This document shows positions 29,017 to 33,786 of a DNA stretch of 64,000 nucleotides, one piece after another. Position 1 is the first letter of the stretch. The number at the start of each line of letters is the position of its first letter. The notes below the pieces were generated by a model. It was not told the origin of the DNA and searched no databases. It was given only the letters and a program-made list of their open reading frames with translations. The position numbers were made by a program, and so were the translations under genes. The stretch comes from Synechococcales cyanobacterium bin31.maxbin.ball.101. Lineage in GTDB: Bacteria; Cyanobacteriota; Cyanobacteriia; Leptolyngbyales; Leptolyngbyaceae. The stretch is from the NCBI GenBank assembly GCA_013298165.1, contig JAAFJU010000011.1:980-64979 (forward strand). The letters run 5' to 3'.

Positions 29017-29664
29017 CTAACCCCGACGAGACTGCAATTTTCGGTACACGTCTTTAATATCTACATGATGCGCTGCGAGTCCGACCATCGTGTGATAAAA
29101 CAAATCGGCCACTTCCCCCGCAATGTCATCCCGATCGTCGTCTTTAAACGCCATAATCACTTCGGCACATTCTTCTCCCACCTTTTTTAAAATACTGTTG
29201 TCCCCACCCGCCAAGAGTTTGCAGGTATAGGACGCGGCGTCGGGATGGTCACGCCGATCGCAAATCACGTTAAACACTTGCGACAAGGTATCCGCAGGCG
29301 GCGCAGCAGGTCCCCCTTCCACCTGATGAAAACAACTGCGCGCCCCGGTGTGACAAGCAATATCCCCAATCTGCTCCACCGTCACCAACAAAGCGTCACT
29401 ATCACAGTCGTAGCGAATGGATTTGACCTTTTGCTGATGTCCCGAAGTCGCGCCCTTATGCCAAAATTCCTGCCGCGATCGGCTCCAAAACCAAGTTTCA
29501 CCACTGTCCAACGTCTTCTTCAAAGACTCCGCATTCATCCAAGCCATCATCAACACGGTCCCATCCAGGTAGTCCTGAACGATCGCAGGCACTAAGCCTT
29601 GGTCATTGTATTGAATCCGATCGATCGGCACCGAATTTGATGCAACCTTCTCCACAGTAGCCAT
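29017..29664 (-). CDS. hisIE: Bifunctional phosphoribosyl-AMP cyclohydrolase / phosphoribosyl-ATP diphosphatase
   Basis: GLVPAIVQD...VLMMAWMN...ETWFWSRSR...LWHKG.TSG is the HisI part. The CDxD and C...H motifs are present. The C-terminal HisE part reads SYTCKLL...[10 protein letters not shown]. Confidence 0.9.
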
Positions 29665-29846
29665 CCTACGTTCTCCCAATCGACAAACAACTGTTGACGA
29701 TTTAGCATAAGACTCAGCTACACCCTCTGTCACGCCTTTGCTATTTTTCTGACACACAGAACCCATATCCCTCGGCCATCTTAAGTCAACGCCTTGAAGC
29801 TAAGATTTTTTAAGTCAGTCTCTACCCAACTCTACCGAAAATAGTC

Positions 29847-30344
29847 GTGCCAAAATTTAAGTTCCTGTCGGTTAAAACAACCGCGATCGTCCTTGTAAAC
29901 CTGATGCTCCTCGGGGGCGGTCTCTTCCTCCTCTCCGAAGAACTTGATCTACCCGATGCCCCTCGCGGTCCTCGTGTCGCCTCCGCCTGTACCCAGTCCT
30001 GGCCACAACTCCCCAACAACATCACCCCCCAAAGCCTCAAACCCACCAAAGTCGTCATCCAACCCTGGAGAGGCCGCCACCACGTCTATGCCGAATTTGC
30101 CCTGCCGCCCTCCGGATATCTCGTCAATCATCAATTTCGCGTCAATCTAGACAATCTTGGCGATTTCTGTGGTGGTATTTCAGCTCGACCGGGTCAACCG
30201 GGTCAACCGGGGGTTGCGATCGCTCATTTTCGCACTCGCACGGCGCTCTGGTTAATTGCTCAAGGCAAACTCAATGCCCTCAATCAACCTGAGAATTGGC
30301 AACTCGAAGTTCTCCCACTGAATAGCCAAATTTCTAATCCCTAG
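29847..30344 (+). CDS. Hypothetical membrane-anchored protein
   Basis: 165 aa with an N-terminal TM segment. It contains a GQPGQPG micro-duplication. Confidence 0.45.
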   Translation: MPKFKFLSVKTTAIVLVNLMLLGGGLFLLSEELDLPDAPRGPRVASACTQSWPQLPNNITPQSLKPTKVVIQPWRGRHHVYAEFALPPSGYLVNHQFRVNLDNLGDFCGGISARPGQPGQPGVAIAHFRTRTALWLIAQGKLNALNQPENWQLEVLPLNSQISNP

Positions 30345-30389
30345 AATTTCAAATATTCATGAAAAATCGACTGTTAGAGCTAGGAAAGC

Positions 30390-30620
30390 TTATGACGGCA
30401 TATCTATCCAGTTAATCAAATCTTCCAAGCGTTCAAACTCTAAAAGGACATCAGATAATGCATCCAATCGATCGTTCGTCATTTTTTCAAGGCGTTGTTT
30501 GATATCAGCAGAAATATCAATTCCTAACCGACGGTTTAGCATTTTGACTAGAACCTCTGCTTTACCTTCAGCCTTGATTTCCCAATAAGCCCGTGATTCT
30601 TGAATGCTGGAAGCTAGCAT
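30390..30620 (-). CDS. DUF4351-like stand-alone domain (C-terminal module of Rpn-type nucleases)
   Basis: EGKAEVLVKMLNRRLG.I...IKQRLEKMTNDRLDALSDVLLEFERLEDLINWI matches the DUF4351 pattern I recall. Confidence 0.5.
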   Translation of the reverse strand: MLASSIQESRAYWEIKAEGKAEVLVKMLNRRLGIDISADIKQRLEKMTNDRLDALSDVLLEFERLEDLINWIDMPS

Positions 30621-30645
30621 GGCGTTTACCTCATTTTTCGTCAGT

Positions 30646-31038
30646 TTATGGAATGATTAACTCGCCTTTTCGAGTATCGATGATGATTCCAAACCGTTGT
30701 AGGAAGTCCATTCCGAGCAATCCACTGGTGAAGGCATTGGTCGGAAGATCGAGTGCAACGACTTGAAAATTTTCGACTCGTTGTCCGAGGCAGTTAAACC
30801 AGGGAATCGTGACGATCGGAGCCTGAAGGACTCCACCTGCTGCGACGATCGGAATGGTTTTCGATCGGCTGACTGCGCATCCCATGGTTTCGAGAACTTG
30901 GACTGGGAGAACGGTGTAGCTTGACCCCGTGTCGATCAGAAGTCGGAACAGGCTGGGTTCGGCGATCGGACTTCCTGCTGCTGCTTTGACGAGCCAGAGA
31001 TTTCGGTAGGATTGGGCGCGGTAGATTCTGGCGGTCAT
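30646..31038 (-). CDS. Retropepsin-like (clan AA) aspartic protease, module A
   Basis: LLIDTGSSYTVLP carries the D-T/S-G active-site motif. LLGMDFLQRFGIIIDTRKGELII is the typical C-terminal strand. Confidence 0.8.
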   Translation of the reverse strand: MTARIYRAQSYRNLWLVKAAAGSPIAEPSLFRLLIDTGSSYTVLPVQVLETMGCAVSRSKTIPIVAAGGVLQAPIVTIPWFNCLGQRVENFQVVALDLPTNAFTSGLLGMDFLQRFGIIIDTRKGELIIP

Positions 31039-31265
31039 AGGATGAAGGCGACGTTTTCTGGAATATGTCCGAAGAATTCAAAGGCAACGCCGCGACCTTG
31101 GGCGATCGACATGGCAGCGTATACGTCTTGGGAGTTGGGCGAATGGGCGAGAACTTCTCCCCGCAGAACTTCCAGCGTTTCCGGATCGGTTTCGGTGTAG
31201 GCGATCATGACCCATTCGCCGTCGTAACGATCGCGCATTTCGTCTAGGGTTAGGATGTTAGCCAT
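31035..31265 (-). CDS. DUF5678-like small protein, module A
   Basis: 76 aa, with YDGEWVMIAY...VLAHS. Its stop codon overlaps the protease A start codon (ATGA). Confidence 0.6.
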   Translation of the reverse strand: MANILTLDEMRDRYDGEWVMIAYTETDPETLEVLRGEVLAHSPNSQDVYAAMSIAQGRGVAFEFFGHIPENVAFIL

Positions 31266-31331
31266 GAAGGATTCCTCGTTGCTGACGGATGTTCAGACTT
31301 GCGATAATTATAGCTGCTCCTCCACCGTGAA

Positions 31332-31731
31332 TCAGAAAATGGTGAATTCCGATCGCTCTCCATCAAATTCAATCCGATATCGCCTCATGAGATCTCGTCC
31401 AACTAACATCAGATTATCAATGACCTCGCCGGGACAGCCTAAAACAATACAAGCTGAAAGGGTATACCGATCGAGCCGTAAAGCCGGCTGCATAGGGAAT
31501 CGCTAATGTAGAGACTCCGCAAACAGGAACACGAATGGCACGATCGATCGCCCTTGCCTTGACCTTCATCAATTGGTCCAATGCTACTAACGTACAGTCT
31601 GACCCCGTGTCTAAAATGGCTTGAGTGGAATAGCTCAGTGGGTTTTCGGAATTTGGGGAGAAGAGTTCGATCGGTAAAATTGGGATGGGCGGTATTGCTT
31701 CGCCTAAGTCAGTATAGGAATAGGTTGCCAT
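31332..31731 (-). pseudogene. Retropepsin-like aspartic protease, module B, interrupted by a frameshift
   Basis: Frame 1 reads MATYSY...AILDTGSDCTLVA...STLAIPYAAGF and then runs into a stop at 31417. The protease-like C-terminus (YTLSACIVLGCPGEVIDNLMLVGRDLMRRYRIEFDGERSEFTIF*) continues in the +1 frame down to 31332. The span is 400 nt, which is not a multiple of 3. Confidence 0.6.
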
Positions 31732-31732
31732 A

Positions 31733-32047
31733 TTAACGAATGACGGCACTCCGGACGATCGGATGTTTGACTTCTGAAACAACTTGGCGAATAAAAATTG
31801 GAGCATCACCGACTTGCTTTACGGCTCGATCGAATAATGCAGCAAAATCCCGATCGGCATCCATGACCTGTTCATCCACCAGCCAAACGTACTGCCCTAA
31901 ATAATCGACGATCAGTTGCGATCGTAAGTTCTCAAAAATATCGGCTTGTCGTTCCAGGTAAGCCATGGTCGGCTGATCGTCGATCGTAAGTTCATCTTGA
32001 TTGGATAATAGGATTGGCATAGGTCGATTACCTGAACGACTTTCCAT
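31733..32047 (-). CDS. DUF5678-like small protein, module B
   Basis: LGQYVWLVDEQVMDADRDFAALFDRA...PIFIRQV. Its stop codon is separated from the protease B ATG by 1 nt (TAAtATG). Confidence 0.55.
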   Translation of the reverse strand: MESRSGNRPMPILLSNQDELTIDDQPTMAYLERQADIFENLRSQLIVDYLGQYVWLVDEQVMDADRDFAALFDRAVKQVGDAPIFIRQVVSEVKHPIVRSAVIR

Positions 32048-32203
32048 AGTTTAGCGTATCCCATTAATGCCGTTATCCTTCCATCATCGCAACAAACTCA
32101 GGACGACCGTGCAGGGGGGCGAGATCTCTGTCGGTGGTGGCAAGCTGACGATATTCCTCGGGTTCTAAGCGGAAGGCGATCGTAAGGTCTTCTAAGGCTG
32201 GCT

Positions 32204-33649
32204 TTAGCTGACTGATGGCGCAGGACTCAAGTTGGTTTGCTCAAGCTCACTATCTTGAATCAATTTATCGCAGAGCTTTTCATATCCAGTGAGTAATAGA
32301 GCGTCAGATGGTAAAGAGATTCGCTGACGTTGTTGAACGACCTCTAGAACTAATGGCTCTAATATCGATTCGGCATGAGCCGATCGATCGCTTGACGCAT
32401 AAATATCCCGAAGTTTACTTTCAAAATTTTGCGATTGTAATTTCTCTAAAACCGCTTGAATATCGGATTCAGATAGCAAATACTCGAACGCTAACGTCAT
32501 CAATTCAGATTCTAAAATCTTGATGCTAATTTTATTGTCATCCTCAATCACGAGATCCAAGGTTGACTGCGAGGCGGAAGATGCCGCAGACCCAGCTAGG
32601 AAACCACCGACTAACCCACCCACAATGGTTCCTAAGCCTGGGAAAATAGCGGTTCCAATTCCTGCCCCGATCGCATAACCGCCTGCACCACCCGCAACCC
32701 CTGCCGCTGTCGTTGTCACATTCTTGACAAACTGTCCACCTGACATCCGCCCTCGGACCAGTCGAGTCACATCACCCGAGGATAGGACCAATGTAGTTAC
32801 GACACCTGTCACCACATTTCCCCGCAGTAACTTGGAAACATTACTCATTGCCGCTGCACCATAAATGGCGTTTCCCCCGCGAAGTCCAGTCGCAATCCAA
32901 GAGGCAGTTTGTGCGCCCATAGTCCTCACGACTGAATCTGTAATTGGTCGAAGGGCTTGCTCTACGCCTGTGCGTCCGATCTGTGCCATGAGAATGCTGG
33001 AAACCCAGGTTACACCCCCGACTTTCAGCCCTGAAAAGCAGGCTTGTTCGATCGCAACCTCCATGGATTGCCCGTTCCATCTTGCGTGGGCAAATGCAAT
33101 CACGGCTGAAATTCCCATCGCAGTCCCTGCCACGCGAATCCCATTCACCGCATCGTAGGTAATCGATTCGATCGTGCCACATCGTGCAATATTTCGAGCC
33201 TGTGCATAGGTGAATTGCCCCTGCCGCACGATGTCCTTTGCTTGACCGGGATCGGTAACGCCCTTGACCTGACCTTTTTTAATGCGTTCTTCCATCGCCT
33301 TAATCGCTGCATCATAGGAATCCGATGGCACCTCAATCTGCATCGGCGATCCATCCGCATTCCAGTAGCGAAACTGCCCATCATGAAAGCACTCTTGAAT
33401 GCATTTCGAGCCGGAATTGCAGTATTTACTTTGAATTTGAACGCCGTCTACTAGTCGATCGGCTCCATTTTTAGCATTATCGCCACCGACCAGTTTTGCA
33501 TTCTTACCCGCTATCACATCTCGAAGATGATTTGCCTTCTCTGCCGCAAATCCATGTCCCCGCTCTGCGTTTAAAATTACGTTATCCGCATAGATTCCAG
33601 CATTGTTCGCAATACCGTTACTAATCGCTGGAATATCTTCTGGGTTCAT
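32204..33649 (-). CDS. Unplaced 481-aa protein: soluble N-domain, glycine-zipper membrane core, acidic helical C-domain
   Basis: The start is taken at MNPEDIP. The N-domain carries ERGHGFAAEKANH...GGDNAKNGADRLVDGVQIQSKY. The core holds several hydrophobic segments, including GVAGGAGGYAIGAGIGTAIFPGLGTIVGGLVGGFLAG. The last roughly 115 aa are a helical, acidic tail. Confidence 0.7.
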   Translation of the reverse strand: MNPEDIPAISNGIANNAGIYADNVILNAERGHGFAAEKANHLRDVIAGKNAKLVGGDNAKNGADRLVDGVQIQSKYCNSGSKCIQECFHDGQFRYWNADGSPMQIEVPSDSYDAAIKAMEERIKKGQVKGVTDPGQAKDIVRQGQFTYAQARNIARCGTIESITYDAVNGIRVAGTAMGISAVIAFAHARWNGQSMEVAIEQACFSGLKVGGVTWVSSILMAQIGRTGVEQALRPITDSVVRTMGAQTASWIATGLRGGNAIYGAAAMSNVSKLLRGNVVTGVVTTLVLSSGDVTRLVRGRMSGGQFVKNVTTTAAGVAGGAGGYAIGAGIGTAIFPGLGTIVGGLVGGFLAGSAASSASQSTLDLVIEDDNKISIKILESELMTLAFEYLLSESDIQAVLEKLQSQNFESKLRDIYASSDRSAHAESILEPLVLEVVQQRQRISLPSDALLLTGYEKLCDKLIQDSELEQTNLSPAPSVS

Positions 33650-33786
33650 GATGAGATGTGTCTGTAAGTCGGGTGTTATTAAGATAAAATCTAATTTCTT
33701 TCTCCGCAACGTAAAATAGGTGGTCTTATTGGCAAATTCATAGACCTGTGAAGTTATGCGACAAAACGATCGTCAAAAAATTGCCT

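Follow-up and report, generated by a model that had tools for sequence, protein, structure and literature searches.

Paired genes for small DUF5678-like proteins and retropepsin-like aspartic proteases in a cyanobacterial genome: a family with features of toxin–antitoxin cassettes

Two adjacent gene pairs, each encoding a small acidic DUF5678-like protein followed by a retropepsin-like aspartic protease, are located in a stretch of 64,000 nucleotides (nt) from Synechococcales cyanobacterium bin31.maxbin.ball.101, a member of Leptolyngbyaceae (GenBank assembly GCA_013298165.1, contig JAAFJU010000011.1, positions 980 to 64,979 of the forward strand; the whole stretch is called the window below, and positions are counted from its first nucleotide). 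The four genes, all on the minus strand, span positions 32047 down to 30646. The pairs (A and B) belong to a family of co-inherited two-gene units that are distributed patchily and in multiple copies, lose the protease while keeping the partner and share an insertion site with VapBC-type cassettes; this combination is expected of toxin–antitoxin or immunity-type pairs. We therefore give about even chances to the reading that the pairs are toxin–antitoxin or abortive-infection cassettes, in which the protease would be the effector and the acidic partner its neutraliser. The initial annotation had suggested a toxin–antitoxin-like organisation of two tandem copies. The conserved coupled unit, its distribution, its insertion site and its mode of decay agree with the first part of this suggestion; the second part has to be revised, as the two modules are not tandem duplicates and module B is defective.

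Pair A consists of small A (31035-31265, minus strand), a DUF5678-like protein of 76 amino acids (aa) with an isoelectric point (pI) of 4.25 and a tail ending in ...IPENVAFIL, and of protease A (30646-31038, minus strand), an intact single-domain retropepsin-like protein of 130 aa with a pI of 9.18. The stop codon of small A overlaps the start codon of protease A (ATGA, 31035-31038). In pair B, small B (31733-32047, minus strand; pI 4.59; also DUF5678-like) has a longest open reading frame (ORF) of 104 aa, though alignment with the family places the true start probably at the internal ATG at 32020, for a protein of 95 aa. The start of protease B, at 31731, is one base past the stop codon of small B (TAAtATG, 31729-31735). 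Both junctions had been noted in the initial annotation and were confirmed in the sequence.

The pairing is conserved far outside the window. A one-genome-per-species scan with an alignment of protease A produced 80 A-type loci, mostly from cyanobacteria, with some from Verrucomicrobia, Nitrospirae, Bipolaricaulota and other groups. A small-A gene adjoins every one of the 78 near-full-length A-type protease domains that hidden Markov models detected in these loci (77 upstream; one, in locus L074, downstream); adjacency of the two families, a question raised in the initial annotation, is thus far beyond chance. A-type genes mostly overlap or are separated by no more than 5 nt, with the ATGA overlap, −1 and +5 nt as common junctions; over both types the distance varies between −8 and +17 nt, and neither a frameshift nor a fusion is conserved. 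Among B-type loci, a homologous small gene is located upstream in ∼38 of 41. Pairwise distances between partners and between proteases are strongly correlated (mirror-tree comparison, r = 0.90), with mean divergences of 0.475 vs 0.497. The overlapping or 1-nt junctions, the complete A-type pairing and the correlated distances bear out the earlier description of a tightly coupled two-gene unit.

Such co-evolution of partner and protease would equally suit an arrangement with no toxin, in which the partner is a processed precursor or a subunit required for dimerisation, i.e. a substrate or cofactor of the protease, and the pair works as a maturation or regulatory unit. The core partner has no DNA-binding domain, as this alternative would have it, and the A-type partner, with a C-terminus conserved to the last residue and a gene directly 5′ of the protease, recalls the retroviral layout. 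The retroviral transframe (p6*) peptide is encoded just upstream of the protease, and its free C-terminus inhibits the mature enzyme. The likeness is one of layout only: a polypeptide is encoded directly 5′ of a retropepsin, and its conserved C-terminus could fill the substrate cleft. The cyanobacterial units differ from p6* in that two separate genes are present, at the distances given above, and the partner has a folded core. We consider the substrate or cofactor arrangement improbable on account of the distribution, decay and insertion-site data described next.

In an even set of 401 cyanobacterial genomes, small-A genes are present in 22 and the B-type protease in four; three genomes of the window's own family carry neither type. 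The genome from which the window comes has 11 small-A ORFs and four B-type pairs, thus 15 small genes, vs seven intact proteases. Four of its small-A genes are accompanied by an intact protease and five have no protease; beside the other two the protease is damaged, once by an in-frame deletion removing the DTG region and once with only a C-terminal remnant left. The other 400 genomes contain 25 small-A genes: 12 with an intact protease, three with a broken or truncated one, eight intact orphans and two in which the small gene itself is broken. Each of the 12 intact A-type proteases in these 400 genomes has a small-A gene beside it, and no intact A- or B-type protease without its partner was found, either in the window's genome or in the sampled genomes. 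Within ∼1.5 kilobases (kb) of the orphan small-A genes no protease remnant was found. In five genomes of one genus (loci L133-L137) an orphan small-A gene with no protease occupies the same locus (∼520-800); it is flanked by a membrane prenyltransferase-like gene and an alpha/beta-hydrolase gene, and a complete pair is present elsewhere in some of these genomes.

Pair B of the window fits the same pattern, with a broken protease and an intact partner. Such an outcome, with proteases lost and partners retained, would be expected of a protease that does damage when its partner is absent and of a partner that on its own causes no harm or is even of use. The longer life of orphan partners is the main argument against the substrate or cofactor arrangement, as a substrate or cofactor left without its enzyme should decay equally fast, and also against the adaptor model discussed below. 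The patchy, multi-copy distribution of the pairs speaks against a substrate or cofactor as well.

The fourth line of evidence is the insertion site. Pair A is part of a DNA block of ∼670 bp, 92% identical between contexts, that extends from ∼48 nt 5′ of small A to the stop codon of the protease and has different flanks; the block was seen in at least three contexts, and metagenomic contigs encode a protease A 96% identical to that of the window. In loci L129/L130 a 103-aa gene is intact, and the TATAAT box (see below) and small A follow within ∼50 nt of its end, so that the site is ‘empty’. In L125-L127 the gap is occupied, on the other strand, by a VapBC-type cassette (PIN plus a 66-aa gene) located between two copies of the tail of the 103-aa gene. 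In the window only a start-less 3′-end remnant of this small gene is left (32073-32240, minus strand), marking the insertion hot spot that precedes the cassettes, and the gap is filled by pair B. In L081 the same tail is followed by a B-type pair, beyond which there is no pair A. Since one position holds pair B, a VapBC cassette, nothing, or a B-type pair alone, the spot after the 3′ end of the 103-aa gene is a hot spot of cassette exchange. An insertion slot common to VapBC is a further point against the substrate or cofactor arrangement. In L125 (3767-4724; also in L126 and L127) the VapBC-type cassette is bracketed by the duplicated last 60-110 bases of the small upstream gene.

Elsewhere, the contexts of A-type pairs are mutually unrelated: a pair may lie beside a HigA-type antidote gene, beside Uma2 nucleases or beside NB-ARC/TPR and trypsin genes. 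In Roseofilum (L148, 5777-7106) an A-type pair is located directly beside hisIE (PRA-CH/PRA-PH); in the window (29017-31265) hisIE is found ∼900 nt beyond protease A. This proximity could be either a coincidence or a second preferred site.

Where homology with relatives restarts 5′ of small A, a TATAAT sequence is found within a short AT-rich near-palindrome (31301-31314, minus strand; GCTATAATTATCGC). It is a candidate −10 box of the pair A promoter, proposed from comparison with L125 and L129/L130 only. A scan for promoters and terminators gave sites no commoner than in shuffled sequence, and the consensus scan did not call the TATAAT 5′ of small A. The short palindrome overlaps the putative −10 box, which is weak evidence as regards self-repression.

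Protease B is represented in the window by two ORF fragments on the minus strand. The N-terminal part (31417-31731) carries the D-T-G motif and ends at a premature stop at 31417. Three-frame translation places the last third of the protein (31332-31493), with the conserved GRD motif and the IEFDG ending, in a different frame. A genome-wide profile search likewise recovered this protease as two matches, covering profile positions 1-85 and 79-132. In comparison with intact B-type relatives, which are single ORFs of 132 aa, the window carries a single extra base in three consecutive Ts at ∼31480-31482 (minus strand, GGCTTTACGG). A programmed frameshift was ruled out, because the three further B-type pairs of the same genome are intact and all relatives, these three paralogues included, have the protease in a single ORF. 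The surplus base may be a real mutation or an assembly error; as read from the assembly, pair B appears to have had its protease knocked out by a one-base frameshift, with the partner left as an orphan.

The description of the modules as two tandem copies holds as far as two partner–protease modules do lie side by side. A recent tandem duplication was, however, ruled out by the 23% identity of the two proteases and by a BLASTP comparison of small A with small B, in which no similarity was found. The two small-protein families are linked by profile–profile comparison only (hhalign probability 86.6%, E = 4.5e-6). Judged by these divergences, pairs A and B are two old subtypes set side by side. 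Tandem arrays are not peculiar to the window, since a contig from Oscillatoriales (L069, 1448-6268) has five partner–protease modules in a row, one of them with a doubled partner domain.

The kinship of the small proteins with DUF5678 (PF18929) is distant. Small A matches the family at E = 0.039 (14.2 bits) and small B at E = 0.0016 (18.7 bits), both under the gathering cut-off of 23.2 bits; the label DUF5678-like given in the initial annotation is thus acceptable in the sense of remote relatives and not of family members. In the small-A family, 28 of 36 members match DUF5678 at E ≤ 0.1, with the best value of 1.1e-5. These matches, taken with the sub-threshold hits of the window proteins and the profile–profile link between A and B, make both small proteins distant DUF5678 relatives. 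The small-A family is large, with 1643 representative clusters (at 50% identity) detected at E ≤ 1e-3 in an exhaustive profile search.

An AlphaFold2 model of small A, built from the family alignment, has an overall predicted local distance difference test (pLDDT) score of 85.6. Its predicted order of elements is strand, helix, long hairpin, helix and strand, followed by a low-confidence tail comprising the last 11 residues (pLDDT 55). The tail is the most conserved stretch past the hairpin (G-x-I/V-P-E-D-x-A-F/V-I/M-L, then stop) and, throughout the family, it is nearly always the very end of the protein. For small B, the core (residues 31-90) was modelled with pLDDT >94 as two helices, a hairpin, a helix and a strand, with disordered ends. 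Invariant residues of the small-A family (E17, W18, G36, V38, H41) differ from the conserved residues of the small-B family (Q34, L45, D63, D65, L71, R74, V89); this difference fits co-evolving binding surfaces and not a common catalytic site. A profile search of PDB sequences with the small-protein family gave nothing.

The DUF5678-like domain is almost always C-terminal. Some relatives carry N-terminal DNA-binding heads of the antitoxin kind, HTH_23 in A-type relatives (2.1e-5) and DUF433 in B-type ones (4.1e-5). Out of the 10 longest relatives scanned, six, from cyanobacteria, have an N-terminal Phycobilisome domain (PF00502, up to 2.5e-29; P0167, P0175, P0179, P0189, P0196 and P0204). In locus L143 (G364:C269) an intact protease gene (2231-2683) lies 5 nt downstream of the gene for a 342-aa partner with this domain (1197-2225). 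The usual context of the bilin-binding Cys is absent from both Phycobilisome-domain partners that were inspected. Two natural partner–protease fusions (P0232 and P0256) were not used as evidence of interaction, as they have no DTG and look like decay products.

This domain architecture speaks for adaptor-guided regulated proteolysis, in which the DUF5678-like domain would dock on the protease and the variable N-terminal domains would bring targets or signals, for instance phycobilisome-related ones in cyanobacteria; the role would then lie in stress responses and not in addiction or defence. A C-terminal small domain with diverse N-terminal additions is what such adaptors should look like, and the Phycobilisome-domain partners, one of them encoded immediately before an intact protease, agree with it. 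The partners in the window, though, are bare domains with no targeting part, and the pair is missing from ∼95% of the sampled cyanobacterial genomes and from three genomes of the window's own family. A physiological pathway is also a poorer match than a selfish or defence module for the asymmetric decay and the mobility of the cassette. On balance we find the adaptor model unlikely, a little more so than the substrate or cofactor arrangement.

Protease A scores above the curated Pfam cut-offs for Asp_protease_2 (1.9e-12, 48.1 bits; cut-off 24.3) and gag-asp_proteas (9.8e-11, 42.5 bits; cut-off 28.2), which places it by sequence among the retropepsin-like aspartic proteases. With NCBIfam TIGR02281 (clan_AA_DTGA) it scores 35.8 bits (7.4e-9), under the cut-off of 57.95; the protein is thus related to this family and not a member of it, while some of its database homologues bear the TIGR02281 name. 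The B-type proteases stay under every Pfam cut-off, the read-through product of protease B reaching 15.7 bits with RVP (cut-off 20.7). Each protease of the window has a single D-T-G, as stated in the initial annotation (LLIDTGSS in A, 30925-30933; AILDTGSD, continuing as ILDTGSDCT, in B, 31603-31611). Alignment of the A family shows invariant T37 and G38, an almost invariant D36 and a conserved G106-L-L-G-M-D111, to which the GLLGMDF of protease A corresponds; in the B family L-D-T-G-S-D-C-T and G-R-D are invariant. One DTG per chain, together with the G-x-D motif of dimeric enzymes, implies that the proteases would act as homodimers. Protease A has no membrane anchor or signal peptide.

By sequence, the nearest relatives of solved structure are retroviral proteases and Rickettsia ApRick. 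The B-family profile matches the protease chain of human T-lymphotropic virus 1 (HTLV-1) at 5.3e-6 over the whole domain (positions 24-119), and the A-family profile matches HTLV-1 protease at 0.0044 and Rickettsia ApRick/APRc (PDB 5c9d) at 0.0094. The viral matches are the reason to consider the pairs as relics of a retroelement or virus, i.e. a gag-pro-like remnant with no present cellular role. Such an origin is very improbable: the surroundings of the pairs contain neither a reverse transcriptase or integrase nor a repeat structure, purifying selection on both genes is clear across phyla, the phage collection has no match and the match to PHROG is only weak. The window's genome also has two small single-domain aspartic proteases of a third type (145-151 aa, VDSGA/VDTGA), neither with a DUF5678-like partner (C96:5468-5692, minus strand; C211:15152-15373, plus strand); one of the two overlaps an unrelated upstream gene of 212 aa by 8 nt.

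Among catalogued systems, the closest is PDC-M08, one of 145 defence candidates that Payne et al. (bioRxiv 10.1101/2024.01.29.577857) obtained from genes lying inside BREX, DISARM and type I restriction loci. PDC-M08 is a cassette, FAM_03167>>FAM_00414, counted 381 times in RefSeq and listed as untested (Payne et al.). The PADLOC model PDC-M08B matches protease A at 6.5e-10, and PDC-M08A matches four of the 36 small-A relatives (best 1.7e-4); the small proteins of the window match no PADLOC model. For pair B, the protease matches PDC-M08B at 0.019, and the small protein gave no match to PDC-M08A; pair B is thus practically beyond the reach of these models. Judged by the profile matches, the A-type pair is distantly related to PDC-M08, a candidate already catalogued, and does not make a new category. 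Both cassettes consist of two genes, the first for a small protein and the second for a retropepsin-like protease; PDC-M08 differs in being defined by embedding in restriction, BREX or DISARM loci, while the copies in the window lie in a hot spot for toxin–antitoxin cassettes.

Single ∼130-aa retropepsin-like domains with one DTG and a G-x-D motif are also typical of prokaryotic single-domain clan AA peptidases (pSNCAPs) and of ApRick/APRc. Of the pSNCAPs (COG3577/TIGR02281 and COG5550/TIGR03698) it has been said that ‘little is known’ (Llorens et al. 2009, PMC2642776). The proteases of the window differ from them in having an obligate small partner gene, which was not described in the 2009 survey.

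Classical type II toxin–antitoxin systems such as VapBC share more of the organisation. In both cases the first gene codes for a small acidic protein and its translation is coupled to that of a larger second gene, a conserved part of the partner is disordered and the cassettes are mobile, patchy and multi-copy, with orphan partners that outlive the effectors; some relatives of the small proteins even have the DUF433 or HTH heads mentioned above. The differences are that the putative effector here is an aspartic protease and that the core partner has no DNA-binding domain. In the literature we found no paper on a toxin–antitoxin pair with an aspartic protease as toxin, and nothing on DUF5678 in such a role, on PDC-M08, on retropepsins combined with toxin–antitoxin systems or on retropepsins combined with anti-phage defence. 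The initial annotation had remarked that no function was shown for such bacterial pairs; indeed no functional paper was found, although the A-type kin were already present in PADLOC under the name PDC-M08.

Two neighbours of the pairs were considered as well. A stand-alone DUF4351 gene of 76 aa (30390-30620, minus strand; match 1.3e-12) starts 25 nt past protease A. It was ruled out as a third component, as homology with relatives stops at the stop codon of protease A; it looks like a separate small insert, because the relatives have no such gene beside the pair. On the 5′ side of the pairs, a 501-aa glycine-zipper protein (32204-33709, minus strand) matches PADLOC PDC-M09B (3.8e-8), and its relatives carry the annotation YeeR_C (PF27347). 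Since PDC-M09 is another defence candidate, the region of 30.4-34.9 kb reads as an islet of modules of the defence or toxin type.

Under the toxin–antitoxin reading we envisage the following mode of action. The downstream gene would encode the effector, a cytoplasmic, homodimeric retropepsin-like protease with one DTG per chain, which, if unrestrained, would cleave cellular (or phage) proteins and halt growth. The upstream gene would be translated first and in coupling with the downstream one, and its acidic DUF5678-like product would bind and neutralise the protease of its own pair. In A-type pairs the neutralising part would most likely be the conserved, hydrophobic and disordered C-terminal tail (...IPEDxAFIL-COOH), lodged in the substrate cleft or at the dimer interface. 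The protease would be released once the partner is lost through proteolysis, stress or phage attack. In this scheme the activity and toxicity of the protease, its binding by the partner, the part played by the tail and the trigger are all inferred.

Several observations weigh against this reading. The orphan small genes may instead serve some separate role. A tblastn search of plasmid and phage collections found no copy of the pair. Foldseek comparison with the PDB gave no match at E ≤ 0.001 for either small-protein model, thus no solved antitoxin or inhibitor is alike. In contrast to classical type II antitoxins, partners consisting of the core only (∼75 aa) show no DNA-binding domain that could be recognised, and the difference in charge between an acidic partner and a basic protease is confined to pair A, protease B being acidic. 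The fusions with Phycobilisome domains are the main observation that a simple antitoxin model does not predict. Finally, the literature search found no experiment on any member of the pairs.

A broader version of the toxin–antitoxin reading can be put forward more tentatively, as possible but clearly less probable than the reading itself. The pairs might be founding examples of a toxin–antitoxin or abortive-infection class in which the toxin is an aspartic protease of the retrovirus type and the free tail of the partner acts as a product-like plug. The variable N-terminal heads would then be sensors, with the phycobiliprotein-like head as a decoy that reports an attack on the antenna (e.g. by cyanophage), and the tandem arrays and orphans would reflect diversifying cognate specificities, as in toxin–immunity arrays.

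Bacteria and archaea widely possess retropepsin-like proteases, whose roles are almost unexplored; the family described here, with its obligate partner, resembles an addiction or defence module. If the protease is indeed a toxin and the tail of the partner a plug-like inhibitor, the pairs would add a new effector chemistry to toxin–antitoxin and phage-defence biology, as well as a natural protein inhibitor of retropepsin-type enzymes and a prokaryotic comparison for the restraint of retroviral proteases. The genome from which the window comes offers a test case, as it has an intact and a naturally broken pair next to each other, two subtypes, many orphan partners and an insertion site shared with VapBC.

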